Source of the DNA: a virus | UHGV virus genome: UHGV-0197631 | Strand: one strand, 5' to 3' | Length of the DNA stretch: 43,736 nt | Part shown: in pieces, positions 1,424 through 33,498 of the stretch | Numbering within the stretch: position 1 is the stretch's first letter | How the letters are laid out: the number at the start of each line of letters is the position of its first letter | Notes under the pieces: model-generated | Database searches by the model: none | Seen by the model: the letters and a program-made list of their open reading frames with translations, nothing else | What the model was told of the DNA's origin: nothing | Made by a program: the position numbers and the translations under genes

Positions 1424-1486
1424 CATATAAACTCCGTACATAAAAAATCCCACCGGAGTGGGACTCATTAACAGATTAATTTTTCA

Positions 1487-3322
1487 TTACCTGCCAAAGC
1501 GCGTATAGCCAACATCATGGCTGACATCAAAACCGCTGGATCGCGTTTCCATAACCCGCATACCCGGAGGCGAATTCATAAAAGAGACCTTGATCTCACC
1601 ATCAACTTTTGGCGCAGAAGCTTTGTTAATCATGAAGGGATTCGGGCCTGTGGCACCGGAGGCGTTGTTTGACTGAGCCGGATCTACCGCCGGATAAGGT
1701 GTGTATCCCCGCGCCGGTATTCCCGTCCCATAAGCATCATAAGCACCCGCGCCCCACTGCGCAGAGTTAATGGCATCGACCGTGTCACCGGAACTGTCGG
1801 TAAACCACTCAATAATTGGCTTCAGCTTGTCCCACATATCCTGAAACCACTTAACAACCGGCCCCCAGTTATTGATCACCATCCCCAGCGGCGACCAGGC
1901 AAAAACTTTCTTAAGGAGTTCCCAGCCAGCCTCAAAATAAGGACCAATGGTTTCCCAGAGTTTCTTAAAATAAGGTCCGACAACATCCCAGTTAGTGATA
2001 ATTAATCCCGCAGCCAGGGCTATCGCCGTCGCAATCATGCCAATCGGCGTCATCGACATGATCCTGCTGACAATACTGATGGCACCGCCAACGCCCATCA
2101 ATCCCAGTTTCAGAATCGCAAGACCAGCAGCAAGCCCGACGACGCCGCGAATAACCCGGGGATTTTCATCCGCAAACTTCGTGAATTTCTCCCCCAACTC
2201 CCCCAGCCATTGCGTGATATTTTTAGCGTCACCAGAAAATGCGCCGCCAATAGCCGCAAGGCCGTTAGTTGCGGTCCCTGTCATTGCCTCCCACAGGTTG
2301 GACAGCGTACCAAGCTGTGCCTGAACACGTTTATTCAGGCTGGCCTGTTTATTCATCTTCTGCTGGATCTGATCGTAGCCATCCTTTCCTTTATCGATTA
2401 GTGCATTGACCACCTGAAGGGTTTCGGCATCATCACCAAATATTGCCTTAAGTACACCAGTTCGTTTAACGTCGGTCAGTTTTCGCAGCTTTGCCAGTTG
2501 CCTGAACATGTTATCAAGACCGCCAAAACTCCCTTTGCCGTCAGTAAAATCGAGCTGTACCCCGAGTTTCTGGCGGGCCATGATTTTATTGACGTCCCTG
2601 ATTTTCTTAACGCTTAATCCGGACTGGATAACTTTTCGCAGGGCGTTACCTGCCGACTCCCCGTTCATCCCCATCTGATCCATCATGACGCTGATGGGGG
2701 CAAGGCTCTGTGCAGCCTGAAGACCGTCCTTGTTCACCATCTTCAGAACAGAGCTGGTTTTAGTGAAGAAGGACAACATGTTGGTATCGTCCACGCCCAG
2801 ATAAAACGCCTTCTGGATAGTGTCGAACAGCCCCATCATGTCTTCTGACGCCGTTCCGGTAGCATCCTGCATCTTTGCAGCAAACTCAGCAGCCGCTTCC
2901 GGTGTTTTTTTCAGTTGTACCGCAAGATAAGCTGTCGCTTTACCCACACCACTCAGAATGTTTTCTGCCGGGATCCCCTGACGCACCAGCATCTGCATCA
3001 TGTTCTGGAAATCAGCCGTTGTACCGGGTAGCTGGTTACCCAGGCCAATAGCCAGTTTATTGATGTCCTGCAAGCGCTTTCCAATCTCGCCGTTCGCATC
3101 CATCATAGCGACTTTCAGCCCGGTGGCGGCGTTTTCCTGATCGGCATAAGATTTCAGGGAAAGCGTCAGACCCGCTGCCAGTCCGCCACCAAGCGCCAGC
3201 CCACCCTGTGACGCTTCTTCCGCCTGGCGTTTAAATCCCCGGATTTTCTTTTGCATTTTCGACAGCGCGGGAGAAAGCCTGTCGACACCGGTGATCAACG
3301 CCTTAAGCTCAAATTCAGCCAT
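1487..3322 (-). CDS. phage tail tape measure protein
   Basis: 611 aa, Gly/Ala-rich with hydrophobic central segments, positioned between tail chaperone and the downstream tail gene as in contractile and non-contractile tails. Confidence 0.8.
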   Translation of the reverse strand: MAEFELKALITGVDRLSPALSKMQKKIRGFKRQAEEASQGGLALGGGLAAGLTLSLKSYADQENAATGLKVAMMDANGEIGKRLQDINKLAIGLGNQLPGTTADFQNMMQMLVRQGIPAENILSGVGKATAYLAVQLKKTPEAAAEFAAKMQDATGTASEDMMGLFDTIQKAFYLGVDDTNMLSFFTKTSSVLKMVNKDGLQAAQSLAPISVMMDQMGMNGESAGNALRKVIQSGLSVKKIRDVNKIMARQKLGVQLDFTDGKGSFGGLDNMFRQLAKLRKLTDVKRTGVLKAIFGDDAETLQVVNALIDKGKDGYDQIQQKMNKQASLNKRVQAQLGTLSNLWEAMTGTATNGLAAIGGAFSGDAKNITQWLGELGEKFTKFADENPRVIRGVVGLAAGLAILKLGLMGVGGAISIVSRIMSMTPIGMIATAIALAAGLIITNWDVVGPYFKKLWETIGPYFEAGWELLKKVFAWSPLGMVINNWGPVVKWFQDMWDKLKPIIEWFTDSSGDTVDAINSAQWGAGAYDAYGTGIPARGYTPYPAVDPAQSNNASGATGPNPFMINKASAPKVDGEIKVSFMNSPPGMRVMETRSSGFDVSHDVGYTRFGR

Positions 3323-3497
3323 GTGTGCGTTTCTCCTGCTCTATCCTGTTTGCCTGACTGACCAGTAAGGGAATTTCACTGATCGGCATATTCAGCAATT
3401 CGAAAGGATTAATGCGCCAGTAACTGGCGCAGTCAAAGAAGCGATCAGTGAGGTATTCAGCCGTCAGGCCTGGAGGAAAAAACCAGCCACAAGCCAC
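3315..3497 (-). CDS. tail assembly chaperone -1 frame extension (gpT-like part of a G-T fusion)
   Basis: 60-codon ORF in the -1 frame overlapping the chaperone 3' end by 34 nt; no ATG (GTG in ORF track); ends 8 nt inside the tape measure start. Confidence 0.5.
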   Translation of the reverse strand: MACGWFFPPGLTAEYLTDRFFDCASYWRINPFELLNMPISEIPLLVSQANRIEQEKRTHG

Positions 3498-3733
3498 GCC
3501 GCTGCATTCAGGTCTGCCGGAGACATCTGGTCGACAGAGCTTTGCGGCACTTTCGCCAGCCGCACAATGTATTTCGATACCACATGCGCCAGAAGTCTGA
3601 CGGACTCATCCTGATTCATCTGGTAGGGATACCCCAGCTCGCGGACATCTTTCCCGGTGGGCTCATCAAACTCCAGTACGGAGAGTGTCTCGCCATGAGC
3701 GGTAATCGGTTTCTTTAACTCAAGCTCTTTCAT
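3464..3733 (-). CDS. tail assembly chaperone (gpG-like, frame 0)
   Basis: 89 aa ORF between tail tube and tape measure; ends ...AGFFLQA with a slippery run near its 3' end. Confidence 0.6.
   Translation of the reverse strand: MKELELKKPITAHGETLSVLEFDEPTGKDVRELGYPYQMNQDESVRLLAHVVSKYIVRLAKVPQSSVDQMSPADLNAAAWLVAGFFLQA
3476..3482 (-). other. candidate -1 programmed frameshift slippery heptamer T TTT TTC
   Basis: Minus-strand sequence GCT GGT TTT TTC CTC: heptamer T_TTT_TTC in frame 0; after -1 slip the reading continues as TTT TTT CCT CCA, which is exactly the 3315..3497 ORF. Confidence 0.5.
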
Positions 3734-4089
3734 TACTGGTAATCCCCTTCTTCACCGTGGAACTCAAGATCAACCGTCCCTTCTTCGGCATTATGGTTTG
3801 CTTCGCCGTGCAGCCAGGCAGACGACAGTACATAGACCTGACCGTTCGCCAGCTCGGCTGTGATGGTCATCTCATCAGACGAGGTGATTTTGCTCACCGG
3901 AAAATTCTTCGGCACCTTGAAGGTCCCTTTAACATAAGGCGCACGGTGAGTTTCCTTGCGGTCCACTGAACCGTCCAGGCCGATGATGTCATCATTGACC
4001 GTCCTGTTCATGGGCACCTCAATGCCGCCGGTCAGCGATAGCTGCTGACCGTCAATTTTGAAATAACAGGTTCCCCCGATACGGGCCAT
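3733..4089 (-). CDS. contractile tail tube protein
   Basis: 118 aa, immediately downstream of sheath gene with start/stop overlap; size and position typical of Mu/P2-type tube. Confidence 0.65.
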   Translation of the reverse strand: MARIGGTCYFKIDGQQLSLTGGIEVPMNRTVNDDIIGLDGSVDRKETHRAPYVKGTFKVPKNFPVSKITSSDEMTITAELANGQVYVLSSAWLHGEANHNAEEGTVDLEFHGEEGDYQ

Positions 4090-5585
4090 TATGCGGACTC
4101 CTCTGAATACTGAAGACGGAACTGGTTAACCACGGCAAAGACACGCAACTGGTTAACATAGTCAGGCGGGAACAGCGTGTTCAGGCGGTTCGGATCGCTG
4201 GCATCACGCTCCACAACCAGGTACTGCTTAAAAAGTTCGTAGTTTTCCACGATCCCCGCACGCTCAAGCTGACGGTAGGTTGCCAGCAGTTCCCCTTTGA
4301 TCACCGCCGGGGTGACAATCGCCTGACCGGGACCAAAGCGGGTACCGTCGCTGGCAAGCTTGTGACGCCCGTACTTACTGGTAATGACGGATTTCAGTTT
4401 GCGCAGTACATACGCACTGGTATGCAGCGTCTCGCTGTCGAGGTAGCTGTTATCCGCAACCCCGTAAGCGTTTTTCCTGTACGTGGTGACATCACGCTGA
4501 ATGCGCAGTACCCCGCTTTCGACATACGCCGTTGCCACGCCATGAGACAGCAGGGTCTGTTGTTCGGTCATCGTGAACCGTTTCCCCTTCGGCGCAGGCA
4601 GCATACCCACCAGCTCACCGGTCTGCGTGGGACGTGCCGGATCGTTGCGGATAAACACCGCTGCGCGGGCGGTACGGCTTGCCGCCAGCTCGTCGGCAGG
4701 CGTCTGGGTCTCTTTTTCGTACCCCGCCAGGGTAATGTGCTGCTGGTTAAACTGGTCACCTGCGGTCACCAGTTCTGACAGCGTGCCGATCTTTGCCGTA
4801 TACACATGACCATACAGCTGACGCGCATAGCTCCAGCGACCGCTGGTATCGTTCATCTCGGTCACCAGCGTGTTAACGGAGGCCGTGTCGTTGAACGGCA
4901 GGCCGATATAATCAAACGGCTCATCCGCCATTGCAGCCACCGCGCCGGTGAGAACCGGAGCACCCGTTCCGGCGGTACCCGTCGCCACGGCAATCTGTAC
5001 GCCCGCTGGCAGCACTTCGCCCCCACCAAAGCCGTAGTAATTGAGGCTGACAGGAATTTCATTCCCGCAAAGCCCCTTATGGCGAGCGGTCAATGTAACC
5101 ACACCAGCCGAAGATGAGGCCGTAAACGGCAGGGCCGGAACGGCATTGATGGCATCTTTGATACTGCTGGCAATCGTCGCGACGTTATCGCCGTTGGTCA
5201 GCGGTGCCTGCACGCGGGTACGTCCCACATAAACATTCACCGTGCCGGTTTCGGTTGCTGCCCCGGTCACCGTCAGCGTAACTGTTGCCGCCGCGCCTGT
5301 GGATTCAGGAACGGCAATCACATACAGCTCGCCAAACGGGTCAGTCTGGCGATAAGCCTCGACCATACGCGCCAGCTGACTTCCCGCACCACAAATCTGG
5401 CGTGCATAGTCTGCCGACGGCATCAGTACCAGACTGTTGGCAACAATCTCTGCACCGTTATTGGCATGACCAATCAGCAGCGATGCTCCGCTGTCCTGTG
5501 CAGTATTCGCCGCCTGGTTATCCATTTCCGCATAAAACAACGGAACCAGCGTATTCGACGGAATGGTGTTAAAGCTTATCGTCAT
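4089..5585 (-). CDS. contractile tail sheath protein
   Basis: 498 aa; position and size; Gly/Thr/Ala-rich composition typical of myovirus sheath proteins. Confidence 0.75.
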   Translation of the reverse strand: MTISFNTIPSNTLVPLFYAEMDNQAANTAQDSGASLLIGHANNGAEIVANSLVLMPSADYARQICGAGSQLARMVEAYRQTDPFGELYVIAVPESTGAAATVTLTVTGAATETGTVNVYVGRTRVQAPLTNGDNVATIASSIKDAINAVPALPFTASSSAGVVTLTARHKGLCGNEIPVSLNYYGFGGGEVLPAGVQIAVATGTAGTGAPVLTGAVAAMADEPFDYIGLPFNDTASVNTLVTEMNDTSGRWSYARQLYGHVYTAKIGTLSELVTAGDQFNQQHITLAGYEKETQTPADELAASRTARAAVFIRNDPARPTQTGELVGMLPAPKGKRFTMTEQQTLLSHGVATAYVESGVLRIQRDVTTYRKNAYGVADNSYLDSETLHTSAYVLRKLKSVITSKYGRHKLASDGTRFGPGQAIVTPAVIKGELLATYRQLERAGIVENYELFKQYLVVERDASDPNRLNTLFPPDYVNQLRVFAVVNQFRLQYSEESA

Positions 5586-5747
5586 CGGTATTCACCTTTT
5601 TATTCACGCGCCGGATATCACCCGCTGCTTCACGGCGCAGCCAGTAGTTGTTCTCGTCAACATTTCGCCCTTCGGCGGGCAAAAGGTCGCCGCGGGCAGG
5701 GTCAGGAACTGACCGCCCTTTAACAGGTTTCACAAACATGAAGATTC

Positions 5748-6308
5748 TCAGGTAGGAAGGGTTATTTCGGTGTGATGTTCGATATCGCCGTCAGGCCCGT
5801 TACCGGGATCGAGATAATCAACATCAATCGCCAGCGTTCGCAGTTCATCCAGACTGTTCAGGTCATCCTGCTGGCGGGTATCGTCTTCGGTCAGCTCGCT
5901 GATGACCGAAAAATCGAACTGATAAATCAGCTCATGACGATTCAGATCCAGCAGCGTGCCGCCGTCATAGGTAATCGGGTTACCGCACGCCTCCGGGTTC
6001 CAGCCCAGCAGAGCCTTAAAGAGCATCTGCCGGACATCGTCCACCACATCATACGAGGCAAACTGACCGCGCTCATCACGCCCGTTACTCAGTATGACAA
6101 CCACGGAGAAACCCTCTTTCAGCTCCTGCCAGTAGTCGGTCTGGCTTTTGTTTTCTCCCGGAGAATCATCACCCGGTACCACATACGCCGCCGGGAGTCT
6201 CAGCTTTCCGACCTCCGGCAGATTTTTGAACGGCTCCGCGCCTGCCACCCGGTTTTCAAAATACGGACAGCGGGCACGCAGTGCAGCAATAACGGGCGTC
6301 AGTTTCAT
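5748..6308 (-). CDS. phage tail/neck completion protein (Mu gp37-like), function uncertain
   Basis: 186 aa ORF between head-tail joining genes and sheath; assignment by position only. Confidence 0.4.
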   Translation of the reverse strand: MKLTPVIAALRARCPYFENRVAGAEPFKNLPEVGKLRLPAAYVVPGDDSPGENKSQTDYWQELKEGFSVVVILSNGRDERGQFASYDVVDDVRQMLFKALLGWNPEACGNPITYDGGTLLDLNRHELIYQFDFSVISELTEDDTRQQDDLNSLDELRTLAIDVDYLDPGNGPDGDIEHHTEITLPT

Positions 6309-6811
6309 CTGTGTCGTCGCTCCGGCTTCAGTGATTTACGCAATTCCCGCGCCAGAAAATAGCGTGTCCAGCTGCGGTTCTTTTCAAGAGTTTCCACCAT
6401 GAAGTTATTACGTGGAGCCAGTCGCCAGCCGCTGCCACCGGATGCACCACGATGATGGCCGCGACGACGCTTTGCCCCTCGCCTCACGCCATAGAACAAA
6501 AAAGCCGGATAAAAATCACCGGTGATACGGCGGTTTCCCTCTCCATTACGCTGGTTAGGGGCTATACGTGCCATAAAACCAGGGCGATGTTTACTGGCTC
6601 TGGGTACCATGTAACCAATTGAACGAGCCAGGCGTCCGGTCTGATAACCGGGGTTTTCACCCGGTGCCGACCGCGCACGGCGCATCACCAGCCGACGGGC
6701 ATCACGCATATGACGCTGACCAATCGTGACAAACGCCCGCCGGACACGGGCGCGGTTAAAGCGCATCTCCGCGGGCTGCTGAAAATCAACGTGCAAAAAG
6801 GAAGTCGTCAT
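6305..6811 (-). CDS. virion morphogenesis protein (HK97 gp10-like), basic
   Basis: 168 aa, very Arg-rich; 4-nt overlap with the downstream gene; position between head-tail adaptor and tail completion. Confidence 0.4.
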   Translation of the reverse strand: MTTSFLHVDFQQPAEMRFNRARVRRAFVTIGQRHMRDARRLVMRRARSAPGENPGYQTGRLARSIGYMVPRASKHRPGFMARIAPNQRNGEGNRRITGDFYPAFLFYGVRRGAKRRRGHHRGASGGSGWRLAPRNNFMVETLEKNRSWTRYFLARELRKSLKPERRHR

Positions 6812-7196
6812 TGTTGCCTCCGTGACTCTGCCTACATTCGCCCAGCTCCGTACACTCCAGCAGCAGAAAGCGCCGCGCCCCGTTCAGATCGCGCTGACGT
6901 TTCACCCGGTACACACTGTCACCGCAGACCACCTCATAATCAGCGGTGATCCCCCGGCGGTAACGAATGGTGATGTAATGGGTGATGGCGTCCCCGGTCT
7001 GCGCGGTTTCCTGCCAGGTGGTGGCACTGGTCTGGATAACCTTCGCCCATGTCCGGAACGTAACCGGGTATTGAGGCTCCACGCCAAAGTTATCCGCGGG
7101 CATATCCACCCGCTGGCGGATCAGGACGCGTTTATTCAGTTCACCGGGGTCCGGCAGAATGTAGGTTGCGCTGGTCTGCGCCTGACGAATTTTCAT
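6786..7196 (-). CDS. head-tail adaptor / head closure protein
   Basis: 136 aa; position in head-tail joining block downstream of gp6-like connector. Confidence 0.45.
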   Translation of the reverse strand: MKIRQAQTSATYILPDPGELNKRVLIRQRVDMPADNFGVEPQYPVTFRTWAKVIQTSATTWQETAQTGDAITHYITIRYRRGITADYEVVCGDSVYRVKRQRDLNGARRFLLLECTELGECRQSHGGNNDDFLFAR

Positions 7197-7516
7197 TGCG
7201 GGAAATACCTGTACGGGCCGACAAGCCAGTTAAAGCTCATTGGCAACTCCATTTTCTCAACGTCTGTAACCGACGAGCGATTTTCGTAAAAATGGCTGAT
7301 AAGCATCAGCATCCCCAGACGAATATCATCCGGCAGGTGCAGCCCGTCCGGATCGCTGTCCGGAATGGTTTCATCCGGAGCATAGAGCTTCCGGTTCAGA
7401 TACGTTTCCGTCCGCTTTTGCGCCGCACAGGCCAGCAGTTGCAGATGGCGGTCATCAGCATCGAAATCCTCATCCAGCCGGAGTTGGGCTTTAATCTCTT
7501 CCATTGTCAGAAGCAT
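7193..7516 (-). CDS. head-tail connector protein (gp6-like)
   Basis: 107 aa acidic protein immediately after the capsid block; 4-nt overlap with the next gene. Confidence 0.45.
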   Translation of the reverse strand: MLLTMEEIKAQLRLDEDFDADDRHLQLLACAAQKRTETYLNRKLYAPDETIPDSDPDGLHLPDDIRLGMLMLISHFYENRSSVTDVEKMELPMSFNWLVGPYRYFPQ

Positions 7517-28347: not shown

Positions 28348-28697
28348 TGGAGCCATACAGCCTCACACTCGATGAGGCCTGTCATTTTCTCAAGATATCC
28401 AGACCGACTGCCATTAACTGGATACGCACAGGGCGTCTTCAGGCAACACGCAAAGATCCCACTAAGAATAAATCTCCTTACCTCACAACACGACAAGCCT
28501 GCATTGCGGCTCTTCAGTCTCCGCTGCATACTGTCCAGGTGAGCGCGGGTGATGGCATAACAGAGGAAAGAAAATGTCACTCTTCCGCAGAGGTGAAATA
28601 TGGTACGCCAGTTTCACATTGCCGAACGGTAAAAGATTTAAACAGTCTCTTGGAACAAAGGACAAAAGGCAGGCGACAGAACTCCATGACAAGCTAA
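28347..28697 (+). CDS. xis: excisionase-like HTH protein (Xis)
   Basis: [33 protein letters not shown] is an HTH_17/AlpA-Xis type motif; AGAGGTG Shine-Dalgarno upstream; ORF overlaps the int start, so the true C-terminus is uncertain. Confidence 0.5.
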
Positions 28698-29737
28698 AGG
28701 CTGAAGCATGGCGGGTCAGCAAACTTGGTGAAATACCTGATATAACGTTCGAGGAAGCGTGTGTCAGGTGGCTTGAAGAGAAAGCACATAAAAAATCACT
28801 GGACGATGACAAAAGCCGGATCGGATTCTGGCTTCAACATTTCGCAGGAATGCAACTAAGAGACATTACTGAATCAAAAATTTATTCAGCAATGCAGAAA
28901 ATGACGAACCGGCGTCATGAGGAAAACTGGAAACTCAGGGCAGAAGCATGCAGAAAAAAAGGGAAACCTGTTCCAGAATACACGCCAAAACCAGCGTCCG
29001 TTGCAACGAAGGCTACGCATCTTTCATTTATAAAGGCCCTACTAAGAGCCGCAGAGCGTGAATGGAAAATGCTGGATAAGGCACCAATTATTAAAGTGCC
29101 TCAACCAAAGAATAAACGGATCCGCTGGCTGGAGCCCCATGAAGCACAAAGGCTGATTGATGAATGTCCGGAGCCATTAAAGTCTGTTGTTGAATTTGCA
29201 CTGGCAACAGGCTTAAGACGCTCGAACATCATCAACCTTGAATGGCAACAAATAGATATGCAGCGCCGGGTGGCATGGATAAACCCGGAAGAGAGTAAAT
29301 CAAACCGCGCAATTGGCGTTGCGCTGAATGATACTGCATGTCGCGTATTGAAAAAACAAATCGGGAATCATCACCGTTGGGTATTTGTGTACAAGGAAAG
29401 CTGTACCAAACCAGACGGAACGAAAGCGCCAACAGTAAGGAAGATGCGGTATGACGCAAACACAGCCTGGAAAGCGGCGCTGAGACGGGCTGGTATTGAT
29501 GATTTCAGATTTCACGACTTGAGACACACCTGGGCAAGTTGGCTGGTTCAAGCCGGAGTCCCGTTGTCAGTGTTACAGGAAATGGGAGGCTGGGAGTCTA
29601 TCGAAATGGTTCGTCGATATGCTCACCTTGCACCTAATCACCTTACCGAACACGCACGGCAAATAGACTCGATCCTGAACCCATCGGTCCCAAATTTGTC
29701 CCAGTCAAAAAATAAGGAAGGTACAAATGATGTGTAA
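28574..29737 (+). CDS. int: tyrosine integrase (lambda-type)
   Basis: 387 aa; catalytic-region motifs ([10 protein letters not shown] ... RRYAHL); ends 14 nt before the tRNA-Thr-derived att core. Confidence 0.85.
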
Positions 29738-29751
29738 CTTATTGATTTAAA

Positions 29752-29800
29752 TGGTGCCGATAATAGGAGTCGAACCTACGACCTTCGCATTACGAATGCG
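29752..29800 (-). other. att core: 49-nt 3' portion of tRNA-Thr(CGU) (thrW-type), not a complete tRNA gene
   Basis: Reverse complement reads CGCATTCGTAATGCGAAGGTCGTAGGTTCGACTCCTATTATCGGCACCA (anticodon loop with CGT, T-arm, acceptor 3' end, CCA); D-arm and 5' acceptor half are absent. Confidence 0.7.
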
Positions 29801-29984
29801 ACGTTAATATACTTTCAACTGTTTGAATAGTCACTCTAAAACTCATTTTTATCATTATAAAACATACTATTACCATAAATCACCTATTGATTAAAATTGA
29901 CAGGTGTTGATGTTTATTCCCGCAATTTACTTACACCAGCCGTTACATTACTGTAAGACAGAAATCCTCAACTGGAACCAGACT

Positions 29985-31283
29985 ATGGCGCTTTCAAGAC
30001 AAAAACTCACCTTCGAAAGACTTCGCAGATTTACTTTACCGGAAGGAAAAAAACAAACCTTCCTTTGGGATGCGGATGTTACAACTCTGGCATGCCGAGC
30101 AACTAGCGGAGCAAAAGCCTTCGTATTCCAAAGCGTTTATGCGGGAAAAACCCTTCGCATGACCATTGGCAACATTAATGACTGGAGGATTGATGAAGCA
30201 AGGAGCGAGGCAAGACGGTTACAAACATTGATCGATACCGGGATAGATCCGCGAATTGCTAAGGCTGTAAAAATCGCAGAAGCAGCATCTCAGCAGGCAG
30301 AATCACGTAAAACAAAAGTGACTTTCTCCGTCGCCTGGGAAGACTATCTTCAGGAATTGCGAAACGGTATCAGTGCAAAAACCAAGCGTCCATATTCTAC
30401 TCGATACATTGCAGATCACATCAACTTGTCCAGCCGTGGAGGGGAAAGTAAAAAAAGAGGTCAGGGCCCAACCTCAGCTGGACCATTAGCTTGTTTGCTC
30501 GACCTACCGCTATCAGATCTAACACCGGACTATATTGCTGCATGGCTGAGTACAGAAAGACAAAATAGACCGACTGTCACTGCCCATGCTTATCGCCTGC
30601 TGCGTGCTTTCATCAAATGGAGTAATTATCAGAAAAAATATCAGGGAATTATTTCTGGCGATCTTGCACAAGATTACAACGTAAAAAAAATGGTGCCAGT
30701 GTCTGCGAGCAAAGCCGATGATTGCTTGCAAAAAGAACAACTCAAAAGCTGGTTTAGATCCGTGCGTGGCCTTAGTAGCCCTGTTGCGTCAGCGTATCTT
30801 CAGGTGCTTTTACTTACCGGTGCGCGGCGTGAAGAAATTGCGTCACTTCGCTGGTCAGACGTCGATTTCAAATGGGCAAGCATGCGAATTAAAGACAAAA
30901 TCGAAGGAGAACGCATCATCCCTCTCACACCTTATGTTTCTAGCCTATTAAACGCGCTGTCCGCAGCCCCAAATGCTGAGGTAAGTAAGGAGAATTGGGT
31001 TTTCAGAAGTCATAGCAAAAGCGGCAAAATTATTGAACCTCGTTCAGCACACAATCGGGCTTTAGCGCAGGCTGAATTACCGCACATTAGTGTACATGGG
31101 CTACGCCGTAGTTTTGGTACGCTTGCCGAGTGGGTTGAAGTGCCAACTGGTATTGTTGCGCAGATTATGGGCCATAAGCCTAGTGCTCTTGCTGAGAAAC
31201 ACTATCGCCGCCGTCCACTGGATCTGCTGAGAAAATGGCATGAGAAAATTGAGACCTGGATCTTAGAACAGGCTGATATTTGA
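29985..31283 (+). CDS. tyrosine integrase (P4/CP4-57-type)
   Basis: Start at MALSRQKLTFERL; N-terminal arm-binding-like region, C-terminal catalytic region (HGLRRSFGT ... HY); second integrase abutting the same att core. Confidence 0.8.
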   Translation: MALSRQKLTFERLRRFTLPEGKKQTFLWDADVTTLACRATSGAKAFVFQSVYAGKTLRMTIGNINDWRIDEARSEARRLQTLIDTGIDPRIAKAVKIAEAASQQAESRKTKVTFSVAWEDYLQELRNGISAKTKRPYSTRYIADHINLSSRGGESKKRGQGPTSAGPLACLLDLPLSDLTPDYIAAWLSTERQNRPTVTAHAYRLLRAFIKWSNYQKKYQGIISGDLAQDYNVKKMVPVSASKADDCLQKEQLKSWFRSVRGLSSPVASAYLQVLLLTGARREEIASLRWSDVDFKWASMRIKDKIEGERIIPLTPYVSSLLNALSAAPNAEVSKENWVFRSHSKSGKIIEPRSAHNRALAQAELPHISVHGLRRSFGTLAEWVEVPTGIVAQIMGHKPSALAEKHYRRRPLDLLRKWHEKIETWILEQADI

Positions 31284-31418
31284 AAATAAATCGATGTTGA
31301 TTAGTGTTGATTTTATTATAAATCAATTAGTTATAAACAAATCGCTTAGTTGACATCACTAAGCTTTATGGTGACAATTCTTCCACTTTAATACATTAAC
31401 TCAAAGAGGATACATGGA

Positions 31419-31862
31419 ATGAATAATCCAGCTTTTGACATACCAGAGCGGGAGATGCTTATCATCATAGATTCAAATGCTGAATCAACATGTCCAGAAG
31501 TTAATTGGGCCGAATGCGAGGCACAGGTTAACGCTCTGTTTAAAAATGCCTATAGTGAAACTAAATGCTTCATTGCTCGTGCTAAGGTAAGATTCTCGCA
31601 GCACATGAGAAGTATTAGCCGTACAGTTTTGCAATGCTTCTCATCCCCACGTCTTCAATCCAAAAACCGTGCTTCAAGATCTCGCCGTAGCCATAGCTCT
31701 TCACGGAGCAGCGGCCGCTCAGCCAAATCTAGTGATAGTGACAGTTCCCCCTCGGACCCCTTACCTCTTCATAACCTATCTCTAAGTCTTCATTTAAATC
31801 TCTCTTCGCTTTTTTCACTTTTTAGCATGGCTCATACCTCTATCGACGAGGTGATCAAATGA
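31419..31862 (+). CDS. hypothetical protein with Ser/Arg-rich low-complexity C-terminus (possibly degraded)
   Basis: 147 aa; C-terminal half is SRSRRSHSSSRSSGRSAKSSDSDSS..., atypical for a folded protein. Confidence 0.25.
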   Translation: MNNPAFDIPEREMLIIIDSNAESTCPEVNWAECEAQVNALFKNAYSETKCFIARAKVRFSQHMRSISRTVLQCFSSPRLQSKNRASRSRRSHSSSRSSGRSAKSSDSDSSPSDPLPLHNLSLSLHLNLSSLFSLFSMAHTSIDEVIK

Positions 31863-32098
31863 GCGGCATCCTATTATCTCAGTTACCTAAAGATATTCCT
31901 GCATCTTCCCTGATTTACGTAAAGGAAGTCGCCAGCCTTCTCGGACTACAGCCTCAGACGATCAGGAAGTGGATTTGCCATGATTCATTGCCTGAAGGGC
32001 TACCAACACCAAAAAAGCTAAACAGAAAAAACTGCTGGCTAAGAACCGATATTGAATCCTTTATTGCAACAAAGTTTTCAAATAACAGTAAATTCTGA
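31859..32098 (+). CDS. alpA: AlpA-family transcriptional regulator / excisionase-like
   Basis: 79 aa with HTH_17-like motif (YVKEVASLLGLQPQTIRKWI); position after integrase as in CP4-57. Confidence 0.65.
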   Translation: MSGILLSQLPKDIPASSLIYVKEVASLLGLQPQTIRKWICHDSLPEGLPTPKKLNRKNCWLRTDIESFIATKFSNNSKF

Positions 32099-32106
32099 GG
32101 CAAAAG

Positions 32107-33498
32107 ATGGAAAAACTTCCTTACCCAATTGATGCCTTTCCAATAATCATGAGAAATGCTGCCTATGAAGAGCATAATATCACTAAAGCTCCCATGGCAA
32201 TGATAGGGTCTGCAATGTTGAGCGCAGTATCCTTGGCTTGCCAAAGCAAAGTTGATGTAGAAAGGCCTGGAGGACTTAAAGGTCCAACATCTCTTTTTTT
32301 TGTTACAATCGCAGAATCAGGCGAACGAAAAAGTGCAATTGACAAAAATGTATTTTCTGCGATACATGAATGCGAAAAAATGTTCGCACAGCAACACGCC
32401 GAAGAAATGAATTGGTATTCCGGTGCCGTTGAGATCTATGAAGCAGAAAAGAAAGCTCTATTTTCCAAATTAAAAATGCAGATAAAAAAAGGTCTTGATA
32501 CCTCTCAAACCAAAGATGATATCGATGAATTAAATTCAAAAAAGCCTGTCCTTCCCCGTTCACGAAAATTAATCATGAGTGACACCACTCCAGCGGCATT
32601 AAAAGATCATTTATCTGGGGAAGGTCGATCGGTCGGCATTCTCTCAGATGAAGGTGGTGTGGTGTTTGGTGGTTCGGCACTGAATAATCCTTCGCTCATC
32701 AATACAATATGGAGTGGCGGGGATGTACATATTGACAGGAAAAACAGGGCACCAGTGACTATATCTGATGCAAGACTCACATTATCAATTATGGTTCAGC
32801 AAAATTTATTGAATACATTTCAAAGAAGCAATAATAAAATTGCAAAGGATTCAGGATTTAATGCCAGATGCCTATTCAGCCATCCTGTATCAACTCAAGG
32901 GTATCGGCAGATATATAATCCAGTAATATCCAGGGAACATATGCCAATTTTTAACGGACGCATTAAGGAACTCATTTTATCTGGTTTACATAATGACAGA
33001 GTGCTGTTGCAATTTTCACCAGCCGCAGCCAGCGCATGGATCGACTGGTATAATTTCATTGAAACTCAAATGGCCTCAACAGGAGAACTATTTAATATCA
33101 GAGATTGTGCATCAAAAATTGCCGAGAACACAGCAAGAATCGCAGCATTAATGCACTTCTTCAGAGGTGATGAGGGCGATATAACCCTCATAGCTATGGA
33201 TGCGGCCGAAAAAATCAGCACATGGTATCTCGAAGAATATCAACATTTTTTCACAAGTAGCAATAATAGCAACGACGAAAATGAACTATTCGACTGGATT
33301 ATACATTATTGCCGTTACCATGGTCTGGCACGTTTGAAGAAAAACATCATTCTTCAATATGGACCAGTTCGACTCAGGAGTAAAAAGACTATAGAACCAT
33401 TGCTGAATAACCTTGCGTATACTCAGAAAATTCTTTTTGAAACTAGGGGAAGAACCACTTACTTAATCCCAGTAAAATTAGGATCACGGCATTTATAA
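32107..33498 (+). CDS. DUF3987-like protein (YfjI-like, P4-type island replication-associated)
   Basis: 463 aa; synteny int-alpA-DUF3987 matches CP4-57-type islands. Confidence 0.55.
   Translation: MEKLPYPIDAFPIIMRNAAYEEHNITKAPMAMIGSAMLSAVSLACQSKVDVERPGGLKGPTSLFFVTIAESGERKSAIDKNVFSAIHECEKMFAQQHAEEMNWYSGAVEIYEAEKKALFSKLKMQIKKGLDTSQTKDDIDELNSKKPVLPRSRKLIMSDTTPAALKDHLSGEGRSVGILSDEGGVVFGGSALNNPSLINTIWSGGDVHIDRKNRAPVTISDARLTLSIMVQQNLLNTFQRSNNKIAKDSGFNARCLFSHPVSTQGYRQIYNPVISREHMPIFNGRIKELILSGLHNDRVLLQFSPAAASAWIDWYNFIETQMASTGELFNIRDCASKIAENTARIAALMHFFRGDEGDITLIAMDAAEKISTWYLEEYQHFFTSSNNSNDENELFDWIIHYCRYHGLARLKKNIILQYGPVRLRSKKTIEPLLNNLAYTQKILFETRGRTTYLIPVKLGSRHL

Follow-up and report, generated by a model that had tools for sequence, protein, structure and literature searches.

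Organization of the tail locus

The DNA analyzed here, referred to as the window, is the 43,736-nucleotide virus genome UHGV-0197631. It carries part of an SfV/SfI-type prophage with a Mu-like contractile tail, and its tail genes share 98–99% identity with their counterparts in SfI, SfV and SfII, which are isolated phages. The genes around the site of interest (Table 1) are Mu-like and not P2-like in character, comprising a DUF2635 gene, a sheath and a tube gene of the Mu type, and a DNA-circularisation protein gene. The tail tube gene and the tape measure gene flank a minus-strand open reading frame that runs from the ATG at 3733 to a TGA at 3466-3464. Its product matches Pfam PF10109 with an E-value of 1.9e-16 and 60.3 bits (cutoff 25), residues 4-86 aligning to positions 2-78 of the 79-position profile. 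The Pfam description of this family reads 'Phage tail assembly chaperone proteins, E, or 41 or 14'. NCBIfam gave no match.

The genes of this cluster are tightly packed. The stop codon of the tube gene overlaps the chaperone start in the sequence TAATG, while the tape measure ATG (3322-3320) overlaps the stop codon of a second, −1 frame extension (ATGGCTGA), within which the AGGAG of the tape measure gene (3337-3333) is also situated. Neither strand yielded a promoter-like site, and the sole terminator-like site lies on the plus strand. A search of positions 3250-3560 against Rfam returned 0 matches at E<=1. Matches in the PDB were to light-harvesting proteins, covering residues 74-121 across the predicted junction, and were taken as spurious.

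Table 1. Tail genes and frameshift-associated features of the window
Feature	Coordinates	Strand	Description
Tail sheath gene	4089..5585	−	498 aa; Pfam PF04984, PF17482, PF17481
Tail tube gene	3733..4089	−	118 aa; PF10618 Tail_tube, E=2.4e-33
Tail assembly chaperone ORF (G / P2 gpE equivalent), zero frame	3464..3733	−	89 aa; ORF list and PF10109 Phage_TAC_7
Slippery heptamer T_TTT_TTC	3476..3482	−	X_XXY_YYZ phase, GG[T TTT TTC]; sequence and conservation
−1 frame extension (putative T / P2 E' equivalent)	3315..3476	−	53 sense codons and TGA; C at 3476 read twice
Predicted G-T fusion	join 3733..3476, 3476..3315 (span 3315..3733)	−	139 aa: G residues 1-86 and 53 more; derived from sequence
Perfect 8-bp hairpin UGCGCCAG-UUA-CUGGCGCA	3413..3431	−	Inside extension, 44 nt 3' of heptamer; not a canonical stimulator
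Tape measure gene	1487..3322	−	611 aa; PF10145 PhageMin_Tail, E=6.5e-27

The slip site and its reading frames

The 3' end of the chaperone gene reads GCT GGT TTT TTC CTC CAG GCC TGA, and a T_TTT_TTC heptamer therefore occupies 3482-3476 in the X_XXY_YYZ phase, with TTT as the P-site and TTC as the A-site codon. It is the only in-phase heptamer of this form within the chaperone frame, and 12 nt separate it from the end of the stop codon. The first codon following a −1 slip would be CCT (3476-3474), from which the −1 frame is open to the TGA at 3317-3315, that is, 149 nt past the chaperone stop and with an 8 nt overlap with the tape measure ATG. The original prediction had placed the end of the chaperone frame shortly after the heptamer and had an overlapping −1 frame run into the start of the tape measure gene; both the positions and the frames are as it described. 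In the +1 frame a stop codon follows 7 nt after that of the chaperone, which rules out a +1/−2 shift of the kind found in Mu. A single frame split by a sequencing error or frameshift mutation was also ruled out, the two-frame layout being present in 91 of 91 related loci.

T_TTT_TTC is found in the window 27 times against 13.6 expected, and the last 40 codons of the 115 open reading frames of at least 80 aa hold 20 in-phase X_XXY_YYZ heptamers. Because the heptamer is this frequent, one sequence is weak proof, and the significance of the site rests on its position and conservation.

Conservation among related loci

Related loci were sought with a four-sequence chaperone alignment, and the comparison set consisted of 91 diverged or species-representative loci with 51 distinct sequences. 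The set includes ten diverged phages, whose chaperones are 35-80% identical to that of the window, and 80 genome loci from Enterobacteriaceae, Burkholderia, Pseudomonas, Methylophaga and Rhodocyclaceae. An in-phase T_TTT_TT[C/T/G] is situated at an invariant Phe column in all ten diverged phages and all 80 genome loci. Across the whole set the form T_TTT_TT[C/T] accounts for 88 of 91 loci and T_TTT_TTG for the other three, always at the identical alignment column. The codon preceding the TTT of the heptamer is GGT, AGT, CGT, AAT, CCT or GAT among the 51 distinct sequences, such that the encoded amino acid varies and the third-position T is constant, despite a usage of T at third positions of merely 6-37% in those chaperone genes.

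The −1 frame is likewise maintained, extending 92-152 nt beyond the chaperone stop in every locus and ending no more than 11 nt from the tape measure start in 90 of 91. The exception is a locus (L114) in which the −1 frame continues for 61 nt beyond the automatically called tape measure start. The shift site is bracketed in another locus (L110), where no more than 10 nt of open −1 frame precede the heptamer and the chaperone frame closes 9 nt beyond it. Pseudomonas loci with the SfV-like type of tail also retain this layout; one paper interprets them as pyocin-like particles, and their putative lytic genes appear functional (PMC2647930).

A further 80 near-identical copies from IMG/VR, with chaperones 100% identical to that of the window, inform on population variants and not on divergence. 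Of these, 76 retain the canonical heptamer together with an extension that is intact at 53 or 55 residues. In three copies GGG replaces GGT, with loss of the X base: L025 has regained a T6 run that is shifted by one base relative to the original phase, and L056 and L062 have T5 only, with the extension frame intact. The extension of one more copy (L023) is rearranged.

The extension as coding sequence

The pN/pS ratio of the extension is 0.26 in the −1 frame, compared with 1.23 and 1.13 in the other two frames, and its variable columns fall at the three codon positions 26, 15 and 38 times. The two frames share 66 nt in the SfIV/ST64B group, and there too it is the −1 frame that is constrained (pN/pS of 0.39 vs 0.87-0.98). 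By these measures, the −1 frame is the sole frame of the extension under purifying selection. At the protein level, an alignment of the extensions shows the conserved pattern [YF]W..P...RI. That of the window matches the PHROGs family phrog_32181 (E=2e-41), for which the listed function is unknown. When the fusion was used as a tblastn query, both halves were recovered as two pieces in different frames from 23 phage records, with identity down to 39%.

Relation to known chaperone frameshifts

The closest characterized relative of the pair is P2 E/E+E', to which it is homologous as judged by sequence comparison. P2 E and E+E' are described as proteins of 91 and 142 aa, the longer being produced by a −1 shift at TTTTTTG (Christie 2002; Xu 2004; cited in PMC3091744), and the −1 site is marked in the P2 RefSeq record. 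The corresponding products of the window would be 89 and 139 aa. Both zero-frame proteins belong to PF10109, P2 E with 47.8 bits and the window chaperone with 60.3, and residues 7-85 of the former and 4-86 of the latter align to the same profile positions, ending at the A-site codon. The heptamers share one alignment column, reading GTC GGT TTT TTG in P2 and GCT GGT TTT TTC in the window, and the extension of each ends 8 nt into the tape measure gene. Homology of the extensions themselves is remote: a profile of 20 extensions aligned to P2 E' with hhalign (91% probability, E=1e-6, 36 columns), while pairwise BLASTP against P2 E+E' was not significant (E=0.56). The window extension did not match Pfam PF06528 (Phage_P2_GpE) even at E=10, and one of its 20 relatives did so with E=0.0098. 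The two systems differ in the Z base (G in P2, C in the window), in the distance from heptamer to chaperone stop (21 nt in P2, 12 nt in the window), and in context, the P2 pair belonging to the FETUD tail operon whereas the neighbors in the window are Mu-like.

Lambda G/GT, the model put forward in the original prediction, remains apt for the general arrangement, though not as the nearest relative. In lambda, a −1 shift takes place at G_GGA_AAG (Levin 1993; Xu 2013, 2014; summarized in PMC5009743), and the same summary gives roughly one GT per 30 G. Common to lambda and the window are the slot flanked by the major tail and tape measure genes, and a short product with a −1 extended product from a single start. 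By analogy, a low-level shift that sets the ratio of the two forms (~30:1 in lambda) and their absence from the virion would be expected for the window. The heptamer and its tRNAs differ, being Gly/Lys in lambda and Phe/Phe here, and the lambda tail is non-contractile. A function in assembly is transferred to the window by analogy alone. No lambda G or T family is among the Pfam matches of the window proteins.

Phage Mu has the closest set of tail genes (sheath L, tube M, gp38/DUF2635, tape measure gp42 and circularisation protein N), with a chaperone gene in the corresponding slot. Its gp41/42 had been proposed as a parallel, and this is borne out for the slot but not for the shift: the Mu chaperone shift is −2 (PMC5009743; PMC2628397), and gp42 is the tape measure protein and not a frameshift product. 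Mu gp41 is a 144-aa protein with a PF23746 (Gp41_Mu) score of 119.5 bits, and falls just short of the PF10109 threshold (24.7 vs 25 bits), whereas the window chaperone matches PF10109 and not PF23746. It has no in-phase X_XXY_YYZ heptamer, and its −1 frame extends just 38 nt beyond the gp41 stop, the +1/−2 frame being open for 130 nt. The alternative-frame extension of Mu nevertheless bears a weak resemblance to the extension family of the window (hhalign 51%, E=1.5e-4).

Proposed mechanism

The conserved heptamer, selection in the −1 frame and homology to P2 all back the programmed −1 frameshift originally suggested for the chaperone pair. Very probably, the prophage makes a short and a long tail chaperone by a −1 ribosomal slip on TTTTTTC, a type of shift that experiments have demonstrated in P2, the long form being a 139-aa fusion. 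Most ribosomes would remain in the zero frame and terminate at 3466-3464 to yield the 89-aa chaperone. A minority would slip on U_UUU_UUC (3482-3476), where two Phe-tRNAs on UUU-UUC could re-pair one base back on UUU-UUU, and would then read 53 more codons to the UGA at 3317-3315. The fusion would thus share its N-terminus with the short form. We infer the ribosomal nature of the shift, its efficiency and its assembly function. By analogy with lambda G/GT and P2 E/E+E', the shared N-terminal part may coat the tape measure protein and the extension may recruit tube subunits; tail assembly would require that the long form be kept at a low, fixed ratio to the short one, with both forms absent from the virion.

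Stimulatory elements and efficiency of the shift

A canonical stimulator 3' of the heptamer was not found in the window: a 103-nt segment taken from the heptamer onward is no more stably folded than its shuffles (z=-1.0), and the 60 nt downstream of it gave z=+0.26. At 5-9 nt downstream, the enterobacterial group has only a weak 3-4 bp hairpin as a conserved structure, and no family-wide structure was detected at this distance by window folds, per-lineage folds or RNAalifold on three lineage groups. A strong stem-loop at this distance is confined to the Burkholderia lineage (z=-3.2 and -3.5). An upstream stimulator resembling a Shine–Dalgarno sequence is not conserved, as the six bases that precede the codons of the slip site are free to vary. 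For P2, too, the account in PMC3091744 reports no downstream hairpin.

Heptamers of the form H_HH.U_UU.Y are among the efficient −1 motifs in Escherichia coli (PMC4066793). In the reporter used in that study, bare UUUUUUC shifted at only 0.12%, and stimulators raised this to 0.9% and 7.6% (PMC4066793 supplement); efficiency in the window could therefore be very low. However, the same reporter gave only 0.28% for bare lambda G_GGA_AAG and 0.12% for bare P2 UUUUUUG (PMC4066793), yet lambda makes about one GT per 30 G and P2 reportedly shifts 2-3 fold more than lambda, according to the summary in PMC5009743. Because no canonical stimulator is present, efficiency in the window is probably around one to a few percent.

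The hairpin within the extension (Table 1) appears in both the MFE and centroid folds and is unique in the window. All 16 nucleotides of its stem are invariant in ten enterobacterial lineages, in which just one loop base varies, and the four degenerate codons of the stem are all invariant as against 17% of such codons overall. As zero-frame ribosomes stop 33 nt before it, only ribosomes that had already shifted would reach it. It is conceivable, if unlikely, that the hairpin is a lineage-specific RNA element which, at a non-canonical distance, tunes the G:GT ratio or couples shifted ribosomes to the translation or stability of the tape measure message.

Alternative explanations

An improbable route to the same long product is transcriptional slippage, whereby RNA polymerase would add one U in the T6 run (3482-3477) and part of the mRNAs would carry the extension in frame. 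One inserted U would give the same G-F-F-P-P junction, and hence mass spectrometry of the long product cannot tell this from a ribosomal slip. The slip site is a homopolymer of six T, or seven in the SfIV/ST64B group, and E. coli genes have a deficit of U and A heptamers in every phase, attributed in part to such slippage (PMC4066793). A T before TTT TTY and TTT over TTC also maximize the length of the run, so these conserved features do not discriminate between the two processes, and the out-of-phase T6 regained by L025 looks as if run length outweighed phase. Slippage by E. coli RNA polymerase is, however, generally appreciable only at runs of about 8-9 or more, and the run is only T6 followed by C in 77 of the 80 genome loci. 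The extension frame also remains intact in L056 and L062, with their T5 runs, the homologous P2 case has been described as a translational frameshift, and the phase of the run is constant in 91 of 91 loci, though homology alone would fix the phase as well.

It is more improbable still that no functional second product is made here, the heptamer and −1 frame being relics with negligible shifting, or the 141-nt gap a mere spacer holding the ribosome-binding site of the tape measure gene. The low reporter value for bare UUUUUUC and the lack of a canonical stimulator would suit this reading, as would the defective state of many E. coli prophages and the X base lost from 3/80 close copies. Against it stand the restriction of purifying selection to the −1 frame of the extension, the heptamer and extension kept intact in 76/80 near-identical IMG/VR copies, the maintenance of the arrangement in Pseudomonas loci whose putative lytic genes appear functional, and the 98-99% identity of the tail genes to those of isolated phages.

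Least credible of all is a separate small gene of 60 aa starting at its own GTG (3497) with no fusion: the mechanical frame 3315-3497 does open with this GTG and not with an ATG, as originally noted, phage vB_EcoM-689R6 annotates exactly that frame as a hypothetical protein and PHROGs keeps it as a family of its own, but the GTG has no Shine–Dalgarno-like motif upstream, in 11 of 22 lineages the −1 frame offers no ATG, GTG or TTG before the conserved core is reached, the few candidate starts in the 22 lineages checked are not conserved in position and lack such a motif, the −1 frame of L110 has just 10 nt ahead of the heptamer, and a separate gene would leave unexplained why an in-phase slippery heptamer is conserved at the nucleotide level.

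Annotation

A −1 ribosomal frameshift in this pair would be an ordinary feature of a known kind, simply unannotated, from which the established G/GT principle gains nothing new; its value lies mainly in annotation. None of the database records inspected for this phage group marks a frameshift. The inspected PGAP, RefSeq and original GenBank records leave the 141-nt stretch empty, and elsewhere it is handled as a stand-alone hypothetical protein (vB_EcoM-689R6) or a family of 'unknown function' (phrog_32181). Annotating join(3733..3476,3476..3315) would give the latter, an orphan family, a known function. Where the presumed pyocin-like particles of Pseudomonas are to be engineered, the heptamer and extension would have to stay intact. 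The prophage type was matched in 1063 of 5426 complete E. coli genomes, and is also that of the serotype-converting Shigella phages SfI, SfII and SfV.

Organization of the tail chaperone locus

Downstream of the tail tube gene, the window carries what is, judging from its sequence, a genuine member of the well-known class of tail-chaperone frameshifts. It had not been annotated before, and its closest counterpart is the E/E+E' pair of P2. The value of the finding is chiefly for annotation. Neighboring genes of this cluster abut or overlap, except that 141 nt lie between the chaperone stop and the tape measure ATG. The chaperone ORF matches the family described in Pfam as 'Phage tail assembly chaperone proteins, E, or 41 or 14' and has the 3' end ...GCT GGT TTT TTC CTC CAG GCC TGA. 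Within it, the codon phase of the chaperone places the T_TTT_TTC heptamer (3482-3476) in X_XXY_YYZ phase, and the stop codon ends 12 nt later. From the C at 3476 the -1 frame translates as PPGLTAEYLTDRFFDCASYWRINPFELLNMPISEIPLLVSQANRIEQEKRTHG and terminates at a TGA (3317-3315) that overlaps the tape measure ATG (ATGGCTGA); the +1 frame is shut 7 nt past the chaperone stop. The original prediction, of a chaperone ORF ending soon after T_TTT_TTC and an overlapping -1 ORF reaching the tape measure start, is accurate in every particular of sequence and frame.

Coordinates of the tail genes and the hairpin within the -1 extension
Feature	Position	Strand	Details
Tail sheath	5585-4089	minus	498 aa
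Tail tube	4089-3733	minus	118 aa
Tail assembly chaperone ORF	3733-3464	minus	89 aa; Pfam PF10109 match, E=1.9e-16
Perfect 8-bp hairpin (inverted repeat)	3431-3413	minus	RNA UGCGCCAG-UUA-CUGGCGCA; across the ten enterobacterial lineages TGCGCCAG-nTA-CTGGCGCA
Tape measure gene	3322-1487	minus	611 aa
DNA-circularisation protein gene	1468-98	minus	next after tape measure gene

The heptamer in one sequence alone is not by itself beyond chance. The window contains 27 copies of TTTTTTC where 13.6 are expected, and the last 40 codons of 115 mechanically defined ORFs of at least 80 aa hold 20 in-phase X_XXY_YYZ heptamers, several of which have a long open -1 frame that is merely the frame of the next gene. 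One such case served as a control that the combination can arise by chance: a 107-aa head-tail ORF (7193-7516, minus) has T_TTC_CCG in phase 6 nt ahead of its stop, followed by a -1 frame open for 407 nt, which is the next gene (6786-7196) with its own ATG. The chaperone is unusual in that its open -1 frame, instead of belonging to the following gene, fills an otherwise empty gap exactly and ends on that gene's start.

Conservation of the slip site

With the predicted 139-aa fusion of chaperone and extension as tblastn query, 23 phage records matched over both halves, each half as a separate piece in its own frame, at identities down to 39%. Ten diverged phages were dissected (EPP-1, AH07, F1055, SfIV, ST64B, phiP27, BgVeeders33, DVM-2008, PG1 and PBb002), along with 80 loci, one genome per species, from Enterobacteriaceae, Burkholderia, Pseudomonas, Methylophaga and Rhodocyclaceae. 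An in-phase T_TTT_TT[C/T/G] stands at an invariant Phe column of the chaperone alignment in 91 of 91 loci, window included, although the 80 genome loci contain many Pseudomonas elements that are close relatives of one another, so that independent lineages effectively number closer to 20. The -1 frame is likewise open in all 91 for 92-152 nt past the chaperone stop, while the +1 frame is usually short. The -1 frame ends no more than 11 nt from the tape measure start in 90; in the exception (L114), the automatically called start lies 61 nt ahead of the end of the -1 frame. The distance from heptamer to chaperone stop varies from 9 to 66 nt, and the heptamer is thus tied to the protein column and not to the stop. 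At one locus (L110) the -1 frame opens 10 nt ahead of the heptamer and the chaperone stop follows 9 nt past it, a bracketing that places the shift at the heptamer itself.

Among 51 distinct sequences, the codon preceding TTT is GGT, AGT, CGT, AAT, CCT or GAT, which amounts to six amino acids with T in the third position every time; the two codons further upstream vary freely. Third-position T accounts for only 6-37% in these genes, and TTT for two of 31 Phe codons elsewhere in the two genes (12 lineages with GC of at least 59%). Dozens of loci, mostly from Pseudomonas genomes (L111-L176) and including the P. fluorescens Q8r1-96 element DVM-2008 (L094), keep the chaperone, an in-phase T_TTT_TTC and the -1 extension at a GC content of ~0.60-0.62, with TTT rare among the few Phe codons of the two genes. 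The Q8r1-96 element is an SfV-like tail cluster without head genes and has been read as pyocin-like (PMC2647930).

T_TTT_TTC is kept in 77 of 80 near-identical IMG/VR copies. The other three (L025, L056 and L062) have GGG for GGT (equivalent to window 3476-3484) and so lose the X base, with the extension ORF intact in each; L025 also has TTT for TTC, which restores a run of six T one base out of phase. This last copy is a small point for transcriptional slippage, whereby one added U would give an identical protein product, but that alternative is rated low because the T run is only six long. Since either mechanism yields the same protein, mass spectrometry of the junction peptide cannot tell ribosomal from transcriptional slippage.

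The -1 extension as a protein

Strictly past the chaperone stop, the pooled pN/pS of ten enterobacterial lineages with identical geometry is 0.26 in the -1 frame, versus 1.23 and 1.13 in the other two frames, and the variable columns per codon position number 26, 15 and 38. In the SfIV/ST64B/phiP27 group both frames stay open together for 66 nt past the heptamer, and over this overlap it is the -1 frame that is constrained (0.39 versus 0.87-0.98), indicating that selection on the -1 reading begins directly after the slip site. Twenty aligned extensions have a conserved ...[YF]-[DN]-x-A-x-[YF]-W-x-x-x-P...R-I... pattern, and on such comparative grounds the extension is predicted to encode protein.

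The claim that the -1 ORF lacks a start of its own is supported by a survey of 22 representative lineages: in 11, the -1 frame has no ATG, GTG or TTG upstream of the conserved core, and the few candidates in the set, GTG 3497 of the window included, have neither an SD-like motif nor positional conservation. Independent initiation of the -1 ORF and the absence of any functional second product are both disfavored, being opposed by this survey, the conservation of the heptamer and the selection signal. A -1 frameshift in the chaperone pair, as originally proposed, is most likely the right reading, given the conserved in-phase heptamer, selection on the -1 frame and lack of a conserved start. Experimental data on this phage group were not found in the accessible literature.

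Relation to the P2 and Mu chaperones

P2 produces E (91 aa) and E+E' (142 aa) via a -1 shift at TTTTTTG (PMC3091744), and its RefSeq record includes the join and the shift site. Its slip region reads GTC GGT TTT TTG. As in the window, the extension reaches 8 nt into the tape measure gene before it stops, and both chaperones align to positions 2-78 of the 79 in the PF10109 profile, ending on the A-site codon. Pairwise BLASTP between the window and P2 was not significant, and the window extension did not match Pfam Phage_P2_GpE. A profile built from 20 extensions matched P2 E' with 91% probability (E=1e-6), one relative among the extensions reaches the Phage_P2_GpE model (E=0.0098), and PBb002 has a P2-like FHWPPSEL motif. 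The slip site, the PF10109 alignment and the extension profile together argue that the window pair is a diverged homologue of P2 E/E+E', set amid Mu-like tail genes.

Mu gp41 is a PF23746 protein with a borderline match to PF10109. In Mu, the -1 frame closes early and the +1/-2 frame is open, the reverse of the window, and reviews give its shift as -2 (PMC5009743, PMC2628397). The +1/-2 extension after gp41 (L092, 3950-4117) matches the window extension family weakly (hhalign 51%, E=1.5e-4), which suggests that one C-terminal module is reached via different frames in related tails.

Mechanism and candidate stimulators

Two Phe-tRNAs would slip in tandem, from UUU-UUC to UUU-UUU. In E. coli, heptamers of the form H_HH.U_UU.Y count among the efficient -1 motifs; in a reporter, UUUUUUC by itself shifted at 0.12%, rising to 0.89% when the IS911 stimulator was present and to 7.6% when the IS3 pseudoknot was, and lambda G_GGA_AAG and P2 UUUUUUG, likewise bare, shifted at 0.28% and 0.12%, respectively (PMC4066793). 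Lambda yields about one GT per 30 G, and P2 shifting is 2-3 fold above that of lambda (PMC5009743). As these native rates are higher, the bare reporter appears to under-predict native sites, and we infer an efficiency of approximately one to a few percent in the window.

In agreement with what PMC3091744 reports for P2, no canonical stimulator was found in folds of the window, and folds of single lineages and of lineage groups revealed none common to the family. Folding the window gives nothing remarkable (z about -1, and +0.26 for the 60 nt that follow the heptamer); the one element spaced correctly is a weak hairpin of 3-4 bp with poor conservation. There is no structure shared across lineage groups, nor a conserved upstream SD-like motif among the 51 distinct sequences. 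Unlike the window, Burkholderia phage BgVeeders33 (L091) and a Burkholderia prophage (L109) have a strong stem-loop at canonical spacing, ~7 nt past T_TTT_TTC (-26.8 and -31.9 kcal/mol; z=-3.2 and -3.5 versus shuffles). Folds were computed for these two of the three Burkholderia loci; the third, a prophage (L108), is nearly identical in sequence to L091. The stimulator may be lineage-specific.

The perfect hairpin inside the extension, unique within the window, lies 44 nt past the heptamer, within the C-A-S-Y-W-R-I codons. A canonical stimulator would lie closer, and ribosomes in the zero frame terminate 33 nt before reaching this hairpin. All 16 stem bases are invariant in the ten enterobacterial lineages, where one loop base alone varies; the hairpin is absent from the other lineage groups. 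The four degenerate, amino-acid-conserved codons in the stem are all nucleotide-invariant, versus 12 of 70 (17%) across both ORFs. Among the other invariant codons are the heptamer Gly codon, the dual-coded codon after it, one in the tape measure SD, and four elsewhere in the chaperone and extension.

Source of the region and existing annotation

Over this region the window shares 98-99% identity with the Shigella serotype-converting phages SfI, SfV and SfII, as well as with several phages of E. coli. Its first 25 kb are collinear with such phages, and segment 3200-3800 is matched in 1063 of 5426 complete E. coli genomes. The frameshift is marked in none of the records inspected. The 141 nt are blank in RefSeq SfI, in GenBank SfV and in E. 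coli AR_0055 as annotated by PGAP, vB_EcoM-689R6 lists the -1 ORF as a separate hypothetical protein, and the PHROGs entry for the extension stretch (phrog_32181) is of 'unknown function'.

Several rearrangements were seen among relatives. In AR_0055 (L004), a 495-nt hypothetical gene (locus 5411-5905) separates the tape measure and DNA-circularisation genes, which are just 18 nt apart in the window (1468-1487); it is a cargo gene inserted or deleted between otherwise near-identical prophages. In one IMG/VR copy (L023), similarity breaks within the extension, at the equivalent of window ~3385-3390, and the -1 frame runs on for ~500 more codons into foreign sequence. E. coli C10 (hit H48) probably carries the same rearrangement; its match covers just 71% of the query, and the adjoining annotation is a VapE domain-containing protein. 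Elsewhere in the window, a tRNA fragment (29763-29820, minus) that matches Rfam (model positions 9-63) and is not detected by ARAGORN comes after a tyrosine integrase (28574-29737). Beyond the fragment lie a second integrase (29904-31283), which has an Arm DNA-binding domain, and a DUF3987 protein (32107-33498). The stretch 28574-33498 looks like two integrative elements arranged in tandem at a single tRNA-derived attachment site.
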